Source of the DNA: Escherichia coli
Lineage (GTDB): Bacteria > Pseudomonadota > Gammaproteobacteria > Enterobacterales > Enterobacteriaceae
NCBI RefSeq assembly: GCF_003790525.1
Contig: NZ_CP033635.1
Length of the DNA stretch: 64,000 nt
Strand: one strand, 5' to 3'
In this document: positions 16,836-60,529 of the stretch, one piece after another
Numbering within the stretch: the first letter of the stretch is position 1
How the letters are laid out: every line of letters starts with the position of its first letter
The notes under the pieces: generated by a model
What the model saw: only the letters and a program-made list of their open reading frames with translations
Told to the model about the DNA's origin: nothing
The model's database searches: none
Program-made: the position numbers and the translations under genes

Positions 16836-18527
16836 ATGAAAACGCTGCTGATTATTGACGCTAATCTCGGTCAGGCACGCGCCTATATGGCGAAGACCCT
16901 GCTGGGCGCGGCGGCGCGAAAAGCAAAACTGGAAATCATCGACAATCCGAACGACGCAGAAATGGCGATTGTTCTCGGTGATTCCATCCCGAATGACAGC
17001 GCGCTGAACGGTAAAAATGTCTGGCTGGGCGATATTTCCCGGGCAGTTGCGCACCCTGAGCTGTTCCTGAGTGAAGCCAAAGGCCATGCGAAACCTTACA
17101 CTGCGCCGGTCGCTGCGACAGCACCGGTTGCCGCCAGCGGTCCGAAACGCGTAGTTGCGGTGACTGCTTGCCCGACTGGCGTAGCACACACCTTTATGGC
17201 GGCTGAAGCCATTGAAACCGAAGCGAAAAAACGTGGCTGGTGGGTGAAAGTTGAAACCCGTGGTTCTGTTGGCGCGGGTAATGCAATCACCCCTGAAGAA
17301 GTCGCAGCAGCGGATCTGGTGATTGTGGCGGCAGATATCGAAGTGGATCTGGCGAAATTTGCTGGTAAACCGATGTATCGCACCTCTACCGGTCTGGCGC
17401 TGAAGAAAACTGCGCAGGAACTGGATAAAGCGGTTGCTGAAGCAACGCCGTATGAACCAGCGGGCAAAGCTCAAACAGCGACCACTGAAGGTAAGAAAGA
17501 GAGTGCAGGCGCTTACCGTCACTTGCTGACGGGCGTCTCTTACATGCTGCCGATGGTCGTTGCAGGTGGTCTGTGTATCGCGCTTTCTTTTGCTTTTGGT
17601 ATCGAAGCGTTTAAAGAGCCGGGTACGTTGGCTGCGGCGCTGATGCAGATTGGTGGTGGTTCAGCCTTTGCGTTGATGGTGCCGGTACTGGCAGGTTATA
17701 TTGCCTTTTCCATTGCCGATCGTCCGGGTCTCACGCCGGGTCTGATTGGCGGTATGCTGGCGGTCAGCACCGGTTCTGGCTTCATTGGCGGTATTATTGC
17801 GGGCTTCCTGGCTGGTTACATTGCGAAGTTAATCAGTACGCAATTGAAACTGCCACAGAGTATGGAGGCGCTGAAACCGATTCTGATCATTCCGCTAATT
17901 TCCAGTCTGGTGGTCGGTCTGGCGATGATCTACCTGATCGGTAAACCGGTTGCTGGCATTCTCGAAGGGTTGACTCACTGGCTGCAGACCATGGGGACTG
18001 CGAATGCGGTTCTGCTGGGGGCGATCCTCGGTGGCATGATGTGTACTGACATGGGCGGTCCGGTAAACAAAGCAGCGTACGCATTCGGTGTGGGTCTGCT
18101 GAGTACTCAAACCTATGGCCCGATGGCGGCGATTATGGCGGCAGGTATGGTGCCACCGCTGGCAATGGGCCTGGCAACAATGGTGGCGCGTCGCAAATTC
18201 GACAAGGCGCAGCAGGAAGGGGGCAAAGCTGCTCTGGTACTGGGACTGTGCTTTATTTCGGAAGGTGCAATTCCGTTTGCTGCCCGTGATCCGATGCGTG
18301 TGCTGCCGTGCTGTATCGTGGGTGGGGCGCTGACTGGCGCAATCTCAATGGCGATTGGTGCGAAACTGATGGCACCGCACGGTGGTCTGTTTGTTCTGCT
18401 GATCCCTGGCGCGATTACGCCGGTATTGGGTTACCTGGTAGCCATTATTGCCGGTACGCTGGTGGCGGGGTTGGCCTATGCCTTCCTGAAACGTCCGGAA
18501 GTGGACGCAGTAGCGAAAGCAGCGTAA
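16836..18527 (+). CDS. fruA: fructose PTS IIB'BC component
   Basis: ORF track 563 aa; duplicated IIB domain plus IIC membrane domain. Confidence 0.95.
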   Translation: MKTLLIIDANLGQARAYMAKTLLGAAARKAKLEIIDNPNDAEMAIVLGDSIPNDSALNGKNVWLGDISRAVAHPELFLSEAKGHAKPYTAPVAATAPVAASGPKRVVAVTACPTGVAHTFMAAEAIETEAKKRGWWVKVETRGSVGAGNAITPEEVAAADLVIVAADIEVDLAKFAGKPMYRTSTGLALKKTAQELDKAVAEATPYEPAGKAQTATTEGKKESAGAYRHLLTGVSYMLPMVVAGGLCIALSFAFGIEAFKEPGTLAAALMQIGGGSAFALMVPVLAGYIAFSIADRPGLTPGLIGGMLAVSTGSGFIGGIIAGFLAGYIAKLISTQLKLPQSMEALKPILIIPLISSLVVGLAMIYLIGKPVAGILEGLTHWLQTMGTANAVLLGAILGGMMCTDMGGPVNKAAYAFGVGLLSTQTYGPMAAIMAAGMVPPLAMGLATMVARRKFDKAQQEGGKAALVLGLCFISEGAIPFAARDPMRVLPCCIVGGALTGAISMAIGAKLMAPHGGLFVLLIPGAITPVLGYLVAIIAGTLVAGLAYAFLKRPEVDAVAKAA

Positions 18528-18681
18528 TAAAAGGTGTGTTACAGGGCAGAAATTTCCTGCCCTGTAACATTTGATGAGCGCAAAGGGAATGACCGGTTTG
18601 TGAATGTAATTTTATGAATTTAAATGGTTTTATCTTTTAGTGGAAACCTGAAACTTTCATCAAACACTAAGGTTATTTCCT

Positions 18682-29660: not shown

Positions 29661-31130
29661 ATGGGTTCCGAAACTAAAACTACAGAAGCGCCGGGCTTAC
29701 GCCGTGAATTAAAGGCGCGTCACCTGACGATGATTGCCATTGGCGGTTCCATCGGTACAGGTCTTTTTGTTGCCTCTGGCGCAACGATTTCTCAGGCAGG
29801 TCCGGGCGGGGCATTGCTCTCGTATATGCTGATTGGCCTGATGGTTTACTTCCTGATGACCAGTCTCGGTGAACTGGCTGCATATATGCCGGTTTCCGGT
29901 TCGTTTGCCACTTACGGTCAGAACTATGTTGAAGAAGGCTTTGGCTTCGCGCTGGGCTGGAACTACTGGTACAACTGGGCGGTGACTATCGCCGTTGACC
30001 TGGTTGCAGCTCAGCTGGTCATGAGCTGGTGGTTCCCGGATACACCGGGCTGGATCTGGAGTGCGCTGTTCCTCGGCGTTATCTTCCTGCTGAACTACAT
30101 CTCAGTTCGTGGCTTTGGTGAAGCGGAATACTGGTTCTCACTGATCAAAGTCACGACAGTTATTGTCTTTATCATCGTTGGCGTGCTGATGATTATCGGT
30201 ATCTTCAAAGGCGCGCAGCCTGCGGGCTGGAGCAACTGGACAATCGGCGAAGCGCCGTTTGCTGGTGGTTTTGCGGCGATGATCGGCGTAGCTATGATTG
30301 TCGGCTTCTCTTTCCAGGGAACCGAGCTGATCGGTATTGCTGCAGGCGAGTCCGAAGATCCGGCGAAAAACATTCCACGCGCGGTACGTCAGGTATTCTG
30401 GCGAATCCTGTTGTTCTATGTGTTCGCGATCCTGATTATCAGCCTGATTATTCCGTATACCGATCCGAGCCTGCTGCGTAACGATGTTAAAGACATCAGC
30501 GTCAGTCCGTTCACCCTGGTGTTCCAGCACGCGGGTCTGCTCTCTGCGGCGGCGGTGATGAACGCAGTTATTCTGACGGCGGTGCTGTCAGCGGGTAACT
30601 CCGGTATGTATGCGTCTACTCGTATGCTGTACACCCTGGCGTGTGACGGTAAAGCGCCGCGCATTTTCGCTAAACTGTCGCGTGGTGGCGTGCCGCGTAA
30701 TGCGCTGTATGCGACGACGGTGATTGCAGGTCTGTGCTTCCTGACCTCCATGTTTGGCAACCAGACGGTATACCTGTGGCTGCTGAACACCTCCGGGATG
30801 ACCGGTTTTATCGCCTGGCTGGGGATTGCCATTAGCCACTATCGTTTCCGTCGCGGGTACGTATTGCAGGGACACGACATTAACGATCTGCCGTACCGTT
30901 CAGGTTTCTTCCCACTGGGGCCGATCTTCGCATTCATTCTGTGTCTGATTATCACTTTGGGCCAGAACTACGAAGCGTTCCTGAAAGATACCATTGACTG
31001 GGGCGGCGTAGCGGCAACGTATATTGGTATCCCGCTGTTCCTGATTATTTGGTTCGGATACAAGCTGATTAAAGGAACTCACTTCGTACGCTACAGCGAA
31101 ATGAAGTTCCCGCAGAACGATAAGAAATAA
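29661..31130 (+). CDS. lysP: lysine-specific permease (APC family)
   Basis: ORF track 489 aa; amino-acid permease fold. Confidence 0.9.
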   Translation: MGSETKTTEAPGLRRELKARHLTMIAIGGSIGTGLFVASGATISQAGPGGALLSYMLIGLMVYFLMTSLGELAAYMPVSGSFATYGQNYVEEGFGFALGWNYWYNWAVTIAVDLVAAQLVMSWWFPDTPGWIWSALFLGVIFLLNYISVRGFGEAEYWFSLIKVTTVIVFIIVGVLMIIGIFKGAQPAGWSNWTIGEAPFAGGFAAMIGVAMIVGFSFQGTELIGIAAGESEDPAKNIPRAVRQVFWRILLFYVFAILIISLIIPYTDPSLLRNDVKDISVSPFTLVFQHAGLLSAAAVMNAVILTAVLSAGNSGMYASTRMLYTLACDGKAPRIFAKLSRGGVPRNALYATTVIAGLCFLTSMFGNQTVYLWLLNTSGMTGFIAWLGIAISHYRFRRGYVLQGHDINDLPYRSGFFPLGPIFAFILCLIITLGQNYEAFLKDTIDWGGVAATYIGIPLFLIIWFGYKLIKGTHFVRYSEMKFPQNDKK

Positions 31131-33444: not shown

Positions 33445-34317
<873 letters not shown>

Positions 34318-34537
34318 TCATACCGTTAATTCATTGTGTCGTGAGTAACTTTCACTTCCGTATTTACATAACCGTGTTTTAACATTACACCTTTGTAAGG
34401 CAGCGGCAATTACAACAATTATCGCGGTGAATACTGGATTATGTGTGCCGCCTCACGCACAATAATCAGGCTGCTAATCAGCTTAATAACTTTGCCCCAC
34501 GCAGGGCAGAGGCGTCACACCTGCAGGAGAAAAATAA

Positions 34538-35206
34538 ATGCCATCACTCAGTAAAGAAGCGGCCCTGGTTCATGAAGCGCTGGTTGCGCGAGGACTGGAA
34601 ACACCGCTGCGCCCGCCCGTGCATGAAATGGATAACGAAACGCGCAAAAGCCTTATCGCCGGTCATATGACGGAAATCATGCAGTTGCTGAATCTCGACC
34701 TGGCTGATGACAGTTTGATGGAAACGCCGCATCGTATTGCCAAAATGTATGTCGATGAAATTTTCTCCGGTCTGGATTACGCCAATTTCCCGAAAATTAC
34801 CCTTATTGAAAACAAAATGAAGGTCGATGAGATGGTTACGGTGCGCGATATCACTCTGACCAGTACCTGTGAACACCATTTTGTTACCATTGATGGCAAA
34901 GCGACGGTGGCTTATATCCCGAAAGATTCGGTGATCGGTCTGTCAAAAATTAACCGCATCGTGCAGTTCTTTGCCCAGCGTCCGCAGGTGCAGGAACGTC
35001 TGACCCAGCAAATTCTCATTGCGCTACAAACGCTGCTGGGCACCAATAACGTGGCTGTCTCTATCGACGCGGTGCATTACTGCGTGAAAGCGCGTGGCAT
35101 CCGCGACGCAACCAGTGCCACAACAACGACCTCTCTTGGTGGATTGTTCAAATCCAGTCAGAATACGCGCCACGAGTTTCTGCGCGCTGTGCGTCATCAC
35201 AACTGA
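34538..35206 (+). CDS. folE: GTP cyclohydrolase I
   Basis: ORF track 222 aa; product recognised as FolE. Confidence 0.95.
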
Positions 35207-35222
35207 TTAAAAGGCAGGAACC

Positions 35223-36380
35223 ATGGAGCGCAACGTCACGCTCGATTTTGTTCGCGGCGTCGCCATTCTGGGGATCCTGCTATTAAACATCAGCGCCTTT
35301 GGGCTACCAAAGGCGGCTTATCTCAATCCCGCCTGGTACGGCGCTATTACGTCGCAGGATGCATGGACCTGGGCATTTCTCGATCTCATCGGCCAGGTGA
35401 AATTCCTCACGCTTTTTGCTCTGCTGTTTGGTGCGGGCCTGCAAATGTTGCTGCCCCGTGGCAGACGCTGGATCCAGTCGCGGTTAACGCTGTTAGTCTT
35501 GCTGGGCTTTATTCACGGTTTATTGTTCTGGGACGGCGATATTCTGCTGGCTTACGGGCTGGTGGGCTTAATCTGCTGGCGGCTGGTGCGCGATGCGCCA
35601 TCGGTAAAAAGCCTGTTTAATACAGGCGTCATGCTTTATCTGGTGGGGCTTGGCGTTTTGCTGTTATTGGGGCTGATTTCCGACAGCCAGACCAGCCGCG
35701 CCTGGACGCCGGATGCATCGGCTATTTTGTATGAAAAATACTGGAAGCTTCACGGCGGCGTTGAAGCGATCAGTAATCGTGCCGATGGTGTTGGCAACAG
35801 TTTACTGGCACTGGGCGCACAGTATGGCTGGCAACTGGCAGGGATGATGCTCATTGGTGCCGCATTGATGCGCAGCGGCTGGCTGAAAGGGCAGTTCAGC
35901 TTACGTCACTATCGTCGTACTGGTTTTGTGCTGGTGGCGATTGGGGTGACCATTAACCTTCCTGCCATCGCCCTGCAATGGCAGCTGGACTGGGCGTATC
36001 GCTGGTGTGCATTCTTACTTCAAATGCCGCGGGAACTGAGTGCGCCGTTTCAGGCGATTGGCTATGCGTCGCTGTTTTATGGCTTCTGGCCGCAATTAAG
36101 CCGCTTTAAGCTGGTGCTGGCAATCGCCTGTGTCGGACGGATGGCACTGACCAACTATCTATTGCAAACGCTGATTTGTACCACGCTTTTTTACCACCTC
36201 GGTTTGTTTATGCTGTTTGACCGTCTGGAATTGCTGGCGTTTGTTATTCCGGTATGGCTGGCGAATATTCTCTTCTCTGTTATCTGGCTGCGTTACTTCC
36301 GCCAGGGGCCGGTGGAATGGCTCTGGCGTCAGTTAACTTTGCGTGCAGCTGGGCCGGCAAGATCTAAAACATCAAGATAA
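35223..36380 (+). CDS. yeiB: DUF418-family inner membrane protein
   Basis: ORF track 385 aa; polytopic membrane protein immediately after folE. Confidence 0.85.
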   Translation: MERNVTLDFVRGVAILGILLLNISAFGLPKAAYLNPAWYGAITSQDAWTWAFLDLIGQVKFLTLFALLFGAGLQMLLPRGRRWIQSRLTLLVLLGFIHGLLFWDGDILLAYGLVGLICWRLVRDAPSVKSLFNTGVMLYLVGLGVLLLLGLISDSQTSRAWTPDASAILYEKYWKLHGGVEAISNRADGVGNSLLALGAQYGWQLAGMMLIGAALMRSGWLKGQFSLRHYRRTGFVLVAIGVTINLPAIALQWQLDWAYRWCAFLLQMPRELSAPFQAIGYASLFYGFWPQLSRFKLVLAIACVGRMALTNYLLQTLICTTLFYHLGLFMLFDRLELLAFVIPVWLANILFSVIWLRYFRQGPVEWLWRQLTLRAAGPARSKTSR

Positions 36381-57291: not shown

Positions 57292-57301
57292 TTTTTGAGA
57301 T

Positions 57302-57332
57302 AAAAATGCCAGCCGATCGGGCTGGCATTTTG
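57302..57332. terminator. bidirectional hairpin terminator between macB and cspD
   Basis: aaaaatgccagccgatcgggctggcattttgcc: stem with an A-run on one side and a T-run on the other. Confidence 0.65.
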
Positions 57333-57363
57333 CCTTTAGGATGTACACAATGAGACAGAAGAG

Positions 57364-57588
57364 CTATGCGACTGCCGCTTCTACTTCGACGGGCACAATA
57401 ACACTGGCGTGATTGCCTTTTGGCCCCTGGTGGACATCAAACTGAACGGATTGTCCAGCTTTTAGCGTTCTGTAACCATCCATCTGAATGGTGGAATAAT
57501 GAGCGAAAATATCTTCGCCGCCGCCTTCAGGGCAGATGAAACCAAACCCTTTGGCATTGTTGAACCACTTAACAGTACCCTTTTCCAT
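57364..57588 (-). CDS. cspD: stationary-phase cold-shock-domain protein CspD
   Basis: ORF 57364..57618 trimmed to the ATG at 57588 (MEKGTVKWFNNAKGFGFI), giving 74 aa. Confidence 0.9.
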   Translation of the reverse strand: MEKGTVKWFNNAKGFGFICPEGGGEDIFAHYSTIQMDGYRTLKAGQSVQFDVHQGPKGNHASVIVPVEVEAAVA

Positions 57589-57808
57589 GCTTCGACATCC
57601 TTCGCAAATCTTATACAAGTAAGATGGAATAAACCGGGGTCAGAGAGGGGGCTGTTCAAAACCTCGCCAACTCTAGAAATACAATTTAGAGAATTAGGGC
57701 GAGCCGTCAAGCATTTGACAGGGGACAGGGGGCAGGTATGAATCAAAAATTTGAAGCAGTTAACGCTATTGACAGGAATGTGACAGATGTCGCTGATGCC
57801 AACGATAG

Positions 57809-57920
57809 ATGATAGTTATTTATCATCTAGTGTTCGCGGGTGTTCGTGGTAGTGTTTTGTGTGCATTCATCGCTATGATTATAAAGGAAAATTTTGTTTT
57901 ACTTGTTCGCTCTTGTTCGT
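57809..57920. promoter_or_regulatory. integrase-proximal repeat cluster (possible att arm-type sites)
   Basis: palindrome GATGATAGTTATTTATCATC (57809-57828) followed by four TGTTCG repeats at 57831, 57841, 57904 and 57914; lies 70-180 bp upstream of int. Confidence 0.35.
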
Positions 57921-57992
57921 CACGGTTTGCCCTTGTACGATGCACGGTGTAGTCAATGGTGTAGTTAATTTTGATGACCGGAAACGCGAAAC

Positions 57993-59231
57993 ATGAGCAG
58001 CGCAATTCATAGACTTAGCGACACTCTTTTACGAAAATTAAGCGGATCACCAACCACAAAAAACGCCTTTTTTAATGACGGTGGCAATCTTAGCGTAAGA
58101 CATTCCACCAGCGGCCTGTTAACCTGGTATTTCACTTACAGGGCCGGAACTGGCAGGCAGGTATCACCGGAACGCCTGAGACTGGGCAACTATCCCGATC
58201 TGAGCCTGAAAGCAGCCAGGGAAAAAGCGGCACAGTGTCGCGCCTGGCTGGCGGAGGGGAAAAATCCACGCCATGAGCTTAATCACACAGTGCAGGAAGC
58301 GTTAGCCCCCGTGACGGTTAAGGACGCGCTCACTTACTGGCTTGAGTCGTATGCGAAGGAAAAGCGCACTGACCACGAATCACTGAAAAGCCGTATCAAT
58401 AAGCACATAATCAGCCAGATTGGTGCTATGCCGCTGGATAAATGCGAGCTACGCCACTGGCTGGCCTGTTTTGACCAGCTTGCTAAGCGTAATCCGGTAT
58501 CAGCCGGCTTTTTGTTGCAGGTATGCAAACAGGCGCTTAAGTACTGCCGTAAACGTCGCTACGCCGTCAGTAACGTTCTTGATGATATGGTCGTAGGTGA
58601 TGTGGGAAAAAAAGCAGAAATAAGCGAGCGAGTGCTAACAAACAAGGAGCTTGGCGAGCTACTCCGCGCACTGGATGAAAAAATTTTCCCGCCGTACTAC
58701 AGCGCTTTAATTCGCCTTCTGATTGTCTTCGGATGCCGTACCACTGAGCTAAGACGCTCCGAGGTTCGGGAATGGGATTTTAAAGAAATGCTCTGGACTG
58801 TGCCGAAAGAACACAGCAAAACGAAGGTAGCAATATTCAGGCCAATACCGGAAGCGATCTTGCCGTTCGTCATGAAGCTGGTGGAGCAGAACAGGCACAC
58901 GGGCTTATTGCTTGGAGAACTGAAAGGGCAATCATCCGTAGCAGAGTACGGAAGAACGGCACACAGACGCATTAATCAAGCCCCCTGGTCGTTGCACGAC
59001 ATCCGGCACACATTTACAACCATGCTGAACGATTTAGGCGTGGATCCGCATATTGTCGAACAGCTTACTGCCCACCAGATGCCAGGAATGCAACGCGTCT
59101 ATAACCACTCCCGTTATCTCGATGCAAAGCGTGACGCTCTTAATCTATGGGTAGACCGTCTCGAGCTTCTCCAGAACAATGATGAAAAAATCGTTGTTAT
59201 GACCCCGCGAATTTACCCCCAAAATTCTTGA
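57993..59231 (+). CDS. P4-type tyrosine integrase
   Basis: ORF track 412 aa; N-terminal DUF4102-like arm-binding region and C-terminal tyrosine recombinase motifs (HDIRHTF ... YNHSRY); not present at this locus in K-12. Confidence 0.85.
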   Translation: MSSAIHRLSDTLLRKLSGSPTTKNAFFNDGGNLSVRHSTSGLLTWYFTYRAGTGRQVSPERLRLGNYPDLSLKAAREKAAQCRAWLAEGKNPRHELNHTVQEALAPVTVKDALTYWLESYAKEKRTDHESLKSRINKHIISQIGAMPLDKCELRHWLACFDQLAKRNPVSAGFLLQVCKQALKYCRKRRYAVSNVLDDMVVGDVGKKAEISERVLTNKELGELLRALDEKIFPPYYSALIRLLIVFGCRTTELRRSEVREWDFKEMLWTVPKEHSKTKVAIFRPIPEAILPFVMKLVEQNRHTGLLLGELKGQSSVAEYGRTAHRRINQAPWSLHDIRHTFTTMLNDLGVDPHIVEQLTAHQMPGMQRVYNHSRYLDAKRDALNLWVDRLELLQNNDEKIVVMTPRIYPQNS

Positions 59232-59650
59232 CAAATTACGGCTGTTTTTTCTTTAAGAGATTACAGCCGTGAATAGATCTTAGAATATCGGGGAATATCT
59301 GCAAATATCTTCTCTTTATATGTGTCAACTATCGAAAAAAATTGAAATGTCTTCTTCTGAGTTCTTATTCTCTGTTTCTTGATTGTTCCAACATCTGATG
59401 GTTTATCTATTTGTTTTTAATGAGGTAATTCAGGTGACATGCCAAATGACGACATTTTTTGTTGCGTCGCTTAAAAACTCGTGACACGATTTTAAACACT
59501 AACGAGCTTCTACGAACCTTAGCGAACAAAGCCTTTAGCATGGTTGTGTTTTTAATTTAAGAGGTGAAAAAGAATCTAAGTAATATCCGATCTCATATAT
59601 CTACAGCTAAGAGAAAAGTTTATATACGTAATTTTTATGTAGGTTTTTGT

Positions 59651-59860
59651 ATGCGTGAAATAAATGAAGATCGCGTAATCCGTGAGGATGAATGTCGTAA
59701 GTTAACTGGAGTGTGTCGCACTACACGCTACGAACTGGAGAAAAAAGGGAGCTTTCCGTCTCGCCGTAATCTTGGTGGGCGTTCTGTAGGTTGGCTGCTG
59801 TCCGAGGTTATGGAATGGGTTAAAAGCCGGGATCGCATTAATTCAGGCAAGGCAGCGTAA
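59651..59860 (+). CDS. AlpA-family phage regulatory protein / excisionase-like HTH
   Basis: within ORF 59564..59860; C-terminal 69 aa match the AlpA pattern (KLTGVCRTTRYELEKKGSFP ... GGRSVGWLLSEVMEWV); alternative GTG start at 59564. Confidence 0.7.
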   Translation: MREINEDRVIREDECRKLTGVCRTTRYELEKKGSFPSRRNLGGRSVGWLLSEVMEWVKSRDRINSGKAA

Positions 59861-59998
59861 AGGGGAGTATATGACACATAAAACAAAGGCGACCGGGGGC
59901 GGTCGCCAATGGGAAAACACTAAACATAAGCCCGAACATCATAGCGATTTGCTGGCTGGTGGGCAATGTGTCCAGTGTGGTGGCTTGCTGGTGGATTG

Positions 59999-60190
59999 TC
60001 AGCCAGGTGGGCGGTTTTTGTTTGCTTTTAAGCGCCGAGGGTATTTCTCGACAAAAGGATCAAGGGCGAACTTATCAGGAACTTTAAGATTTTCAGTGCG
60101 GGTTAATGCCTTATTTATTTCCCTGCGGGTTTTCTCACGCTGGCGCATGATAATTGATAATGCTTTATTTTGTAGTTCCTGGTTATTCAT
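59999..60190 (-). CDS. hypothetical small protein (63 aa)
   Basis: within ORF 59999..60199; ATG at 60190 with AAGGTGA SD; basic/helical composition; convergent with alpA, separated by the hairpin ggcgaccgggggcggtcgcc at 59888-59907. Confidence 0.5.
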   Translation of the reverse strand: MNNQELQNKALSIIMRQREKTRREINKALTRTENLKVPDKFALDPFVEKYPRRLKANKNRPPG

Positions 60191-60247
60191 AATTATCACC
60201 TTTAAAACAATGCGCCGCAGTACCTCACACCACGGCGCTGATAGTGA

Positions 60248-60427
60248 TTATTCTGATTCTTTGGCCTTGCGGCGCTGGCGGTATTCAACTTCTCGCTTTA
60301 ATGCTGCTGTTACAAACTGCCCTGTACTTTCACCAGGCATTTTTACCGCCTCAACATTGTTCATAACTTCATGCGGAACCCTTGCCGCAACTGTTTGTGA
60401 TTTTGCGTTTACTGCTTTTGTCGCCAT
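60248..60427 (-). CDS. putative ribbon-helix-helix DNA-binding protein (59 aa)
   Basis: ATG at 60427, TAA at 60248; below the 60-aa cutoff of the ORF track; strand-helix-loop-helix pattern (TVAARVPHEVMNNVEAVKMPGESTGQFVTAALKRE); directly downstream of the palindromic operators. Confidence 0.5.
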   Translation of the reverse strand: MATKAVNAKSQTVAARVPHEVMNNVEAVKMPGESTGQFVTAALKREVEYRQRRKAKESE

Positions 60428-60477
60428 GTTGTGTACCCCTTACAAAAAACAAATGCAGTATGCAGGAAAAAAAATAA

Positions 60478-60529
60478 GTGTTCAACACTTGGCGTGTTTA
60501 ACACCTAGGCTTAAATTGGTGTTCAACAC
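60478..60529. promoter_or_regulatory. three palindromic operator-like sites GTGTT(c/t)AACAC
   Basis: gtgttcaacac at 60478-60488, gtgtttaacac at 60494-60504, gtgttcaacac at 60519-60529; in the divergent region upstream of the RHH gene. Confidence 0.6.

Follow-up and report, generated by a model that had tools for sequence, protein, structure and literature searches.

The window analyzed here, a stretch of 64,000 nucleotides of Escherichia coli DNA (contig NZ_CP033635.1), stops inside an island of about 10.5 kb which lies between yljB/cspD and clpS and which, judged from its sequence, appears to be a PICI of the EcCIIHE3034 type. Annotation and Pfam matches, read in a near-identical island, assign to it int, alpA, an Icd-like gene, a D5-type primase, ssb, perC, proQ and a Nu1-type terS. 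In its sequence the island has the traits expected of a PICI, namely a length in the class of about 10-15 kb, int, alpA, primase and packaging genes, rightward transcription and an att site unused by prophages, and the site is listed among the reference PICIs in the supplement of PMC10111431. Since the window ends before the island does, attR was taken from a near-identical relative (strain LH50-c, locus L002), which differs from the window by 14 mismatches in the 6701 bases of 57300-64000 and can therefore serve as a close proxy from a different strain. Two further loci are referred to below, the K-12 locus (L001) and the locus of an island variant of 89 % identity (L011). The genes and core elements at the left junction are the following:

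57738-57812, plus strand: yljB, a host small-protein gene with its TGA stop (57810-57812) within the att identity block (sequence; RefSeq annotation of the identical stretch)
57806-57829, no strand: predicted attL core region, inverted repeat TAGATGATA-GTTATT-TATCATCTA, the left arm being K-12 sequence and the right arm running into the island
57809-57819, no strand: att identity block ATGATAGTTAT of attL, attR and the empty attB (window, K-12, L002, L011 and the published clpS_cspD.EcCIIHE3034 block)
57993-59231, plus strand: int, P4-family tyrosine integrase of 412 aa (Pfam Arm-DNA-bind_3, E 1.2e-16; Phage_integrase, E 1.6e-17)
59651-59860, plus strand: alpA, 69-aa Xis/AlpA-family DNA-binding protein, candidate RDF and activator (Pfam Phage_AlpA, E 3.8e-16; annotation)

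In the int product the Arm-DNA-bind_3 domain occupies aa 8-95 and the Phage_integrase domain aa 214-375. The protein is 24 % identical to P4 Int, and the catalytic R, HxxR and Y motifs of the two are aligned.

The stretch from 57300 to 57826 was matched in 5423 of 5426 complete E. coli genomes, while the match continued into int in only 364, and an island is present at this site in at least that number of the 5426. Homology to K-12 ends at 57826, the empty K-12 site reading ATGATAGTTATcTATCAT (L001, 2011-2028). The 20-mer GATGATAGTTATTTATCATC, previously given as a palindrome at 57809-57828, is present one base to the left, at 57808-57827, and is an imperfect palindrome with 7-bp arms and a 6-bp spacer; the arms can be lengthened to 9 bp without a mismatch (TAGATGATA, 57806-57814; TATCATCTA, 57821-57829). 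Bases 57808-57826 are common to K-12 with the exception of T57820, and in the 99.8 %-identical relative the same att block terminates the island about 10.5 kb away, just before clpS. Because K-12 homology reaches 57826 and the same block stands at the far island end, the palindrome is identified as the attL core, and its sharing with K-12 is the pattern expected of such a core. This also bears on a proviso of the preliminary description, according to which the attachment-site reading would fall if the motifs belonged to the conserved cspD promoter region of K-12: the palindrome is indeed nearly all shared with K-12, but it is not the cspD promoter since it overlaps the yljB stop, with the start codon of cspD still about 220 bp further downstream.

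Closer examination of the junctions revealed ATGATAGTTAT(t/c)TATCAT at 57809-57826 of the window, at 30980 of L002 and at 2011-2028 of L001, as well as in L011 and in the published catalogue; identity past 57819 runs to 57826 except for T57820, which is C in attB and attR. The att cores of related loci were too short for an exact-word search to find, and they were placed instead with the help of the published catalogue and by inspection of the junctions. From this comparison, strand exchange must take place within ATGATAGTTAT (57809-57819), which would fix the left boundary of the island to the base and mark the palindrome as an attachment core rather than a control element of cspD or yljB. 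With the K-12 junction, the common identity block and motifs on both arms in its favor, the attachment-site reading holds up well, and we consider it very probable that 57806-57992 as a whole constitutes attL of a PICI phage-satellite island. It is an ordinary site-specific recombination site, the core of which is already catalogued as 'clpS_cspD.EcCIIHE3034' (PMC10111431 supplement). EcCIIHE3034 itself occupies the same chromosomal site with the same ATGATAGTTAT and nearly the same attL and attR, the published IHE3034 attL differing by a few substitutions; its transfer has been reported at low frequency only (PMC6092414).

The inverted repeat owes its significance to its location on the island junction and not to statistics, since chance alone predicts about 2.35 inverted repeats with 9-bp arms in 64 kb, against 21 observed (overlaps counted; mostly GC-rich terminators). 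Its right arm reads TATCAGTTA in three of five diverged islands at the same site, and the extended palindrome is thus not conserved. Candidate half-sites TA(A/G)ATGATA and TATCATNTA flank GTTAT(T/C) in attL, attR and attB, with the T/C difference inside the spacer and a variable right arm. As T57820 differs from the C of attB within the symmetric 6-bp spacer, the true overlap region may not coincide with the center of the palindrome, and the relatives, when compared, point to an overlap displaced leftward. In the mechanism that we propose, the left arm would act as the host half-site and the right arm as the island half-site, with the crossover inside ATGATAGTTAT, and the neighboring tyrosine integrase of the P4 family would contact both half-sites through its catalytic and core-binding domains and carry out strand exchange at this position.

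The palindrome might also be an element native to the host, for instance a terminator of yljB or an RNA or DNA hairpin, that is unrelated to the island or was adopted as its landing site, given that island-free K-12 already has the inverted repeat ATGATAG-TTAT-CTATCAT and that the attL version folds as RNA with a z of -3.6. We consider this very improbable. The folding of the K-12 version (z -1.4) and of the variant-island version (z -0.5) is not unusual, the palindrome is AT-rich without a T-run and was not flagged in the terminator scan, a neighboring terminator-like match (57834-57849) is not conserved in the variants, and neither an Rfam family nor a tRNA overlaps it. A terminator or RNA hairpin was rejected on the missing T-run, the ordinary folding and the lack of Rfam or tRNA matches, and an inverted repeat around the crossover is what the core of a tyrosine recombinase requires; a host role is conceivable but unnecessary as an explanation.

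To the right of the attL core, the int-proximal (P') arm and the int-alpA spacer contain these further elements:

57830-57846, plus strand: core-proximal GTGTTCG pair at 10-bp spacing (57830-57836 and 57840-57846), candidate sites of the RDF AlpA, alternatively accessory integrase sites (sequence, simulation, variants)
57873-57888, no strand: AT-rich box CTATGATTATAAAGGA, invariant and midway along the arm, possible bending-protein site (variants)
57902-57939, plus strand: distal array in 10-bp register, CTTGTTCG at 57902-57909, CTTGTTCG at 57912-57919, a degenerate unit and TTGTACG at 57933-57939 (sequence, simulation, variants)
57913-57941, plus strand: candidate weak int promoter, -35 TTGTTC (57913-57918), 17-bp spacer, -10 TACGAT (57936-57941), read from the sequence, 7/12
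57946-57969, plus strand: doubled motif GGTGTAGTCAAT GGTGTAGTTAAT (GGTGTAGTYAAT twice), 24-47 bp ahead of the int ATG, candidate P4-type arm sites of the integrase N-domain (repeat scan, relatives, P4 geometry)
59513-59528, minus strand: GGTTCG and TGTTCG, 10 bp apart, 128-138 bp upstream of alpA (conserved in L011)

Four copies of TGTTCG, all on the plus strand, are found in two pairs at exactly the positions described before (57831-57836 and 57841-57846, 57904-57909 and 57914-57919). A chance arrangement of short AT-rich words could be suspected here, as the window in total shows no enrichment of TGTTCG (36 copies versus 39.6 expected) and about two 9-bp inverted repeats per 64 kb would arise at random. 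The clustering is nevertheless not random, with four same-strand copies in 95 bp and two pairs at exactly 10-bp spacing: among 500 first-order Markov simulations of the window none contained four copies and four contained three, while none contained two phased pairs and 12 contained one. All four copies are invariant in islands at this site that are 89-96 % identical, although the spacer between them diverges, and the core-proximal GTGTTCG pair is invariant in five island variants in which the adjoining 57847-57872 is variable. At an equal distance from int, relatives carry a TTGTTCC/TTGTTCC/TTGTACC/TTGTGCA array in place of the distal one, which in the window lies directly 5' of the doubled motif.

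The other island boundary and related islands were the places where the preliminary description had proposed to look for the same motifs, and both contain them. On the attR arm of LH50-c, three phased TTGTTCG (L002 30853/30863/30873) are followed by the doubled 12-bp motif and then by the core ATGATAGTTATCTATCAT; phased copies on this other arm were also present in L011, and related islands integrated at four further chromosomal sites retain TTGTTC(C/G) arrays. Given the simulations, the invariance across diverged islands and the reappearance of the motifs at the far junction and in relatives integrated elsewhere, chance is effectively refuted as an explanation and its probability is negligible.

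Across eight loci, each 26-41 kb long, TGTTC pairs in exact phase were confined to the islands, where they occurred on both att arms, in the int-alpA spacer and, as triplets, upstream of the capsid operon in capsid-forming relatives; replication-origin iterons, likewise island-internal, were set apart. Such iterons (CTGTTCACC) account for the phased TGTTC at 18390-18610 of L011, which were excluded as a different feature. The int-alpA spacer of relatives including EcCICFT073 holds up to six phased units. The site right after int is occupied by three (G/A)AATATC in the window island versus TTGTTC arrays in relatives, which counts against the proposed reading.

RDF sites are direct repeats at helical-turn spacing, and RDFs also regulate transcription (PMC7498355, PMC11963761). 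The TGTTCG pairs of the window and the triplet of the other arm conform to this spacing. AlpA of EcCICFT073 activates the promoter of its own gene and, when overexpressed, triggers int-dependent excision (PMC6092414). From position, phasing and a few related, partly clonal sequences, on which the pairing of proteins with repeats is based, we regard the TGTTCG repeats as candidate AlpA sites, an assignment to which we give an even chance of being correct. AlpA would bind the TGTTCG boxes cooperatively and bend the arms for excision, and may use the same boxes at island promoters. If this assignment is true, it would supply the DNA target of the PICI master activator and explain how induction of alpA by a helper phage leads to excision.

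The doubled 12-bp motif was absent from the preliminary description. With at most one mismatch the 12-bp unit matches the window four times (two exact tandem copies and two scattered one-mismatch singletons) versus 0.31 expected, and none of 100 shuffles reached four matches. As a doubled motif it occurs in exactly two places per island, at -46/-34 relative to int and 95 bp to the left of the attR core, and this pattern holds in islands at five different att sites. Measured from the core start, the doubled motif is 137 bp to the right and 95 bp to the left, and both repeat classes, TGTTCG and the doubled motif, recur in the same orientation on the far (P) arm. These are repeated sites on both arms at conserved core distances, also in relatives at other sites, as arm sites should be.

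P4 (NC_001609; Pierson & Kahn 1987, Cali 2004, Piazzolla 2006) has a comparable arrangement. Its Arm-DNA-bind_3 integrase is likewise transcribed away from the core, and tandem pairs of a 12-bp 'attP arm sequence repeat' stand on both arms in the same orientation, one of them just upstream of the int ATG, at 132 and 77 bp from the core as compared to 137 and 95 bp in the window island. P4 also has three 10-bp-phased (C/T)(G/T)TCC units 5' of the int-proximal pair, a Xis-family RDF, Vis, and an int gene repressed by Int and Vis. The two systems differ in their integrases (24 % identical), in the arm repeat itself ((A/G)TTGGGGGCATA in P4 versus GGTGTAGTYAAT), in the site (a tRNA-Leu gene with a 20-bp core in P4 versus an 11(+6)-bp block in intergenic DNA outside tRNA genes) and in the remaining genes, which are PICI-like in the window island (terS, perC, proQ) and not P4-like (no sid, psu or delta). 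Because the motif occurs on both arms with the geometry of the P4 arm repeats, it is probably, by this analogy, a site for the N-terminal domain of the integrase, and its two doubled pairs could give four arm contacts for an integrase tetramer.

The sequence of the motif varies together with the integrase. Variants TCACT and TTAAT track the integrase N-termini VKYLTSGK and VRHSTSGL in 9 versus 16 loci (L002 and L011 included; 15 without L011, whose Int N-terminus was uninspected), although this covariation could be plain linkage as the two lie less than 100 bp apart. One locus (L008) combines both variants across its two arms, and AlpA is identical between one TTAAT island (L004) and one TCACT island (L005). 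A scan of IMG/VR with the integrase alignment yielded close relatives only (76-100 % identity), with most contigs cut at the int start and only 18 that include upstream DNA, and extended the association between N-terminus and motif, not its evolutionary depth. In a cf-PICI with a 48 %-identical integrase a different doubled motif was found, with copies 233 bp apart.

These observations bear on the opposite pairing, in which TGTTCG would be a second class of integrase arm sites, leaving the doubled motif to AlpA or a different factor. Both motifs begin with (G/T)TGT (GGTGTTCG and GGTGTAGT) and stand side by side on both arms. Arm sites of the lambda type are also direct repeats in 10-bp phase, and the Xis sites of lambda attP contain TGTAGT. 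For their own doubled motif, the authors of PMC10111431 leave open whether it is bound by integrase or AlpA. We nevertheless judge this pairing to be rather unlikely. The doubled motif has the position and the tandem 12-bp form of the annotated P4 arm repeats and varies with the integrase N-terminus and not with AlpA, and in the island with the 48 %-identical integrase it is completely changed while TGTTC persists. TGTTC arrays are moreover located at the alpA and capsid promoters far from att, where the role of an activator fits and that of an integrase is not obvious. Of the integrase or IHF sites postulated earlier for the palindrome and the short repeats, the attachment site as such stands, but the IHF consensus is not matched in the int-proximal arm, and from their sequence context the TGTTCG copies are more likely sites of the RDF AlpA than of the integrase, for which the doubled motif is the more likely site.

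Comparison with other PICIs allowed this assignment to be set in a wider frame. Gram-negative PICIs (Fillol-Salom 2018, PMC6092414) have the same int-alpA-primase-terS order, and EcCICFT073 attP shows the same arm architecture including the doubled motif; arm repeats were not found reported in PMC6092414 or PMC10111431. Helper-embedded PICIs (PMC10111431, 'Attachment sites') possess a tandem 12-bp doubled motif (tgTGTATTGCantgTGTATTGCa) with a TGTA core and one co-oriented copy per arm. From the attP center the upstream copy is about 81 bp and the downstream copy about 132 bp away, as compared to 95 and 137 bp from the core start in the window island. Their motif differs in sequence (TGTAGTYAAT), and TGTTC arrays are unmentioned in PMC10111431, which states that the helper-embedded motif is not found in other PICIs. 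We observed an analogous, different doubled motif in classical and capsid-forming PICIs at five to six att sites. A tentative generalization, which we hold to be somewhat less probable than its opposite, is that phased TGTTC(G/C) boxes could be the PICI AlpA operator at the att arms, in the alpA promoter region and at the promoter of the cf-PICI packaging operon, that a single helper-induced protein would couple excision and transcription across classical PICIs and cf-PICIs, and that the doubled 12-bp motif would be a general arm code of P4-family integrases which changes with the N-domain.

The result is a map of the recombination region of a widespread E. coli satellite family, in which four half-sites are candidates for binding by the integrase arm domain and seven boxes for binding by AlpA. 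At the phoQ site, 599 genomes cover at least 80 % of the EcCICFT073 attL query. The conserved order of TGTTC array, doubled motif and int might serve in annotation as an automatic delimiter of PICI ends.

Unless int is read through from yljB, the arrangement of the genes implies that its promoter must lie within 57827-57992. The candidate at 57913-57941 has a counterpart in relatives, which carry TTGTTC-N17-TGCAAT at the same position; a sigma-70 promoter scan gave no plus-strand site of at least 9/12 and did not pick up this 7/12 candidate. The distal TTGTTC coincides with the possible -35, the doubled motif would cover the predicted start site, and autoregulation of int via attL-overlapping sites is documented in KplE1, P4 and PAI I536 (int promoters overlapping attL in KplE1 and P4, PMC2951348). 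This could mean that the repeats are a promoter or operator of int and nothing else, a role that the preliminary description had also mentioned and that we find very improbable, as the same repeats recur in the same order and orientation on the far arm, where there is no int promoter, and repeat-core distances are conserved across att sites. Regulation is on these grounds more likely a by-product of the intasome than the sole purpose of the repeats. With the promoter inside the arm, occupancy by the integrase (and AlpA) probably limits int transcription, by analogy with P4 and KplE1. In EcCICFT073, Pint activity was unchanged by AlpA (PMC6092414), which weakens the case for AlpA sites in the arm regulating int.

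A known regulatory parallel, KplE1 (CPS-53; Panis 2010, PMC2951348), resembles the window in that int abuts attL, and its promoter consequently overlaps the integrase arm sites and the RDF sites (IntS and TorI). This arrangement gives negative autoregulation, with excision controlled by the supply of RDF (PMC2951348). Unlike the window island, KplE1 is a defective prophage inserted at a tRNA; its site sequences are unrelated to those of the window (arm sites with TAAA), and its regulation has been demonstrated while that of the window would follow only by inference.

In the middle of the int-proximal arm, the AT-rich box CTATGATTATAAAGGA is invariant, and GATTATAAA is also kept in related islands. 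The IHF consensus WATCAANNNNTTR had no match with at most one mismatch anywhere in this arm, while on the other arm a single one-mismatch match abuts the core and resembles a core half-site.

The island junction lies between yljB/cspD and clpS.
Gene order around the junction: macA, macB, cspD (minus strand), yljB (small gene, 57738-57812), then the gene for a 412-aa integrase (int, 57993-59231).
The segment 57300-57826 was matched by 5423 of 5426 complete E. coli genomes, while the match runs on into the integrase in only 364. The island-free K-12 locus reads ...GATAGATGATAGTTATcTATCATgtggag..., with clpS 92 bp further along, and the window reads ...GATAGATGATAGTTATtTATCATctagtg... at its junction. 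Strain LH50-c carries an island 99.8 % identical to the window across 57300-64000, the right end of which reads ...tataaATGATAGTTATcTATCATgtggag... with clpS next; the island is thus about 10.5 kb long and its right end lies beyond the window. The sequence common to the att sites comprises an identity block, ATGATAGTTAT (57809-57819), and, beyond a single mismatch, six further bases. Since position 57820 is T in attL of all five island variants examined and C in attR and attB, strand exchange appears to have happened left of 57820. Site and identity block are already catalogued as 'clpS_cspD.EcCIIHE3034', with attL and attR alignments supplied (PMC10111431). No overlap of the junction with a tRNA gene or Rfam family was found.

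The 20-bp palindrome noted in the preliminary description, GATGATAGTTATTTATCATC, is present, though at 57808-57827, one base to the left of where it had been placed. It is an interrupted inverted repeat with perfect 9-bp arms, TAGATGATA (57806-57814) and TATCATCTA (57821-57829), and a 6-bp spacer, GTTATT. Taken with the catalogued block, the K-12, window and LH50-c junction readings indicate that the palindrome is the attL core, built from a half-site of host origin, the crossover block and a half-site of island origin. Inverted repeats of 9 bp are statistically unremarkable alone (about 2.35 expected by chance per 64 kb). The right arm is TATCAGTTA in three of five diverged islands at the clpS/cspD site; the long palindrome of the window is partly fortuitous, and only ATGATAGTTATTTATCA is invariant among islands there.

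The insertion point is the yljB stop codon, 92 bp upstream of the clpS start (window 57738-57826; K-12 locus L001 1939-2112). Insertion separates yljB from clpS-clpA by about 10.5 kb and could change clpS transcription; roughly 7 % of E. coli genomes carry an island here. In LH50-c (L002) a second tyrosine integrase (34288-35490, past the window end) lies with IS1 and other island genes directly downstream of clpA, and two integrative elements therefore flank clpS-clpA. The convergent macB/cspD gap (57305-57329) holds a perfect GC-rich hairpin, AATGCCAGCCGATCGGGCTGGCATT, probably a bidirectional terminator, and the cspA thermoregulator of Rfam matched, below threshold, across the minus-strand cspD transcript region (57300-57693).

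The LH50-c island encodes a P4-family integrase (Arm-DNA-bind_3 and Phage_integrase), AlpA, an Icd-like protein, a D5-type primase, SSB, PerC, ProQ/FinO and a Nu1-type small terminase, the gene organisation of Gram-negative phage-inducible chromosomal islands (PICIs). Fillol-Salom et al. (PMC6092414) included EcCIIHE3034 among the islands with TerS that they tested. Dense iteron arrays, presumably island replication origins, lie 3' of the primase genes past the window end, in LH50-c (L002 26800-27050) and in L011, a diverged relative at the same clpS/cspD site (18390-18610). Iterons (CCCTCTACC/GGTAGAGGG, and CTGTTCACC) and primases differ between these otherwise related islands.

Four copies of TGTTCG had been described beside the palindrome, starting at 57831, 57841, 57904 and 57914; all were found there, on the plus strand. 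TGTTCG is not enriched across the whole window (36 observed, 39.6 expected), yet neither four same-strand copies in 95 bp nor two exact 10-bp pairs were reached in any of 500 Markov simulations. We compared relatives at abgR/smrA (L003, L007), roxA/phoQ (L004, L006 and EcCICFT073 itself, L095), tqsA (L005) and yifB (L008), together with L011 at clpS/cspD. Despite differing cores, they share a single layout of the DNA on the island side. The int-proximal arm runs from the core through TTTATCAnnTAGTGTT, a TGTT(C/T) pair, an AT-rich box with GATTATAAA, three or four TTGTNC units phased at 10 bp and a doubled 12-bp motif (int -46/-34) to int. The other arm carries two or three TTGTTC(C/G) units, then, at 95-98 bp ahead of the core, the doubled motif; in LH50-c these are TTGTTCG x3 (L002 30852-30878) and GGTGTAGTTAAT x2 (30885-30908), the latter 95 bp before the core at 30980. 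Among five clpS/cspD-site variants (89-100 % identical), all TGTTCG, TTGTACG and doubled-motif copies are invariant, while 57847-57872 is highly variable. The initial reading of an attachment site with recombination-protein sites is thus supported, its motifs recurring at the other island boundary (the LH50-c right end) and, as arrays, in related islands at other sites. In EcCICFT073, a PICI that has been studied experimentally, doubled GGTGTAGTTAAT is found 135 bp to the right of the core GGACATATTT and 98 bp to its left.

The doubled motif, overlooked in the preliminary description, is in the window a tandem 12-bp repeat, GGTGTAGTCAAT GGTGTAGTTAAT, at 57946-57969, with 23 bp between its end and the int ATG. 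Every island has the motif at exactly two places, in this island 95 and 137 bp from the core. This is the geometry of P4, whose GenBank record annotates tandem pairs of a 12-bp 'attP arm sequence repeat' on opposite sides of the core, at 77 and 132 bp from it, the int-proximal pair ending 15 bp before the int ATG. Helper-embedded PICIs have a doubled TGTATTGC at -81 and +132, for which integrase arm domains or AlpA were suggested as binders and which was reported as not found in other PICIs (PMC10111431). The capsid-forming satellite vB_KppS-Ant, with an integrase 48 % identical, has a doubled TGTATAAACA with copies 233 bp apart, the second ending 16 bp before int. A doubled 12-bp motif that changes with integrase divergence thus appears to be a general trait of this integrase family.

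Among close relatives, the variant GGTGTAGTCACT pairs with the integrase N-terminus ...VKYLTSGK... (9 loci) and GGTGTAGTTAAT with ...VRHSTSGL... (16 loci including LH50-c and L011, or 15 without L011, whose integrase N-terminus was not inspected). AlpA is identical between one TTAAT island (L004) and one TCACT island (L005). Both observations favour the integrase N-domain as the putative binder of the doubled motif, in a partly clonal sample in which sites and codons are tightly linked. The yifB-site island encodes a mosaic integrase (L008 16098-17327; compared with L003, L005 and L007) whose first ~50 residues match the tqsA type and whose remainder is near-identical to the abgR/smrA type; its core AATAGCGGAT is similar to AATATCGTGA. 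The mosaic is suggestive of arm-domain swapping, with core specificity tracking the C-terminal portion of the protein.

The TGTTCG repeats form a class apart from the doubled motif, with units one helical turn apart on both arms. Exactly phased TGTTC pairs were confined to the islands (eight loci, 26-41 kb each), where they lie on either arm, within the int-alpA spacer and, in capsid-forming relatives, upstream of the capsid operon; one set of matches corresponded to origin iterons and was left out.
59513-59528, minus strand: TGTTCG/GGTTCG pair, 128-138 bp upstream of alpA.
L004 23672-23698, L005 23611-23637 and L008 22677-22703: TTGTTC(G/C/A) x3 arrays.
These triplets of capsid-forming PICIs, with 10-bp spacing, lie directly behind a terminator and ahead of the capsid/packaging operon, and may serve to load an activator or antiterminator. 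The EcCICFT073 int-alpA spacer holds six 10-bp-phased GAACAA units (L095 14985-15050), and in vB_KppS-Ant the alpA homologue is preceded by six phased TGTTCA units.

Recombination directionality factors of the Xis/Cox/Apl/Vis type are reported in the literature to bind direct repeats one turn apart, to form filaments on att DNA and often to regulate promoters too. AlpA of EcCICFT073 activates its own promoter, and its overexpression leads to int-dependent excision (PMC6092414). The most economical reading, to which we give about even chances, is that AlpA binds the TGTTCG boxes. Against it, Pint of EcCICFT073 is unaffected by AlpA (PMC6092414), and in the window (G/A)AATATC x3 at exactly 10-bp spacing (59283-59309, just past the int stop codon and a hairpin at 59238-59270) takes the position of the inverted TTGTTC arrays of related islands. 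That the boxes are instead a second class of integrase sites seems rather unlikely. The att core is already catalogued and the arm architecture fits P4 and published PICI work; new here are the particular arm motifs of this PICI clade and a testable candidate for the AlpA box.

The orientation of int, directed away from the core, means that it must either be transcribed from a promoter within 57827-57992 or be read through from yljB. A promoter scan yielded no plus-strand site. A weak candidate consists of TTGTTC (57913-57918), a 17-bp spacer and TACGAT (57936-57941), and relatives have TTGTTC-N17-TGCAAT at the equivalent position. This candidate would place the transcription start within the doubled motif, an arrangement for which negative autoregulation has been demonstrated, through integrase and the directionality factor in KplE1 and P4, and through integrase in PAI I536. 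By analogy, int of this island may be autoregulated, and the arm sites may double as the int operator proposed earlier.
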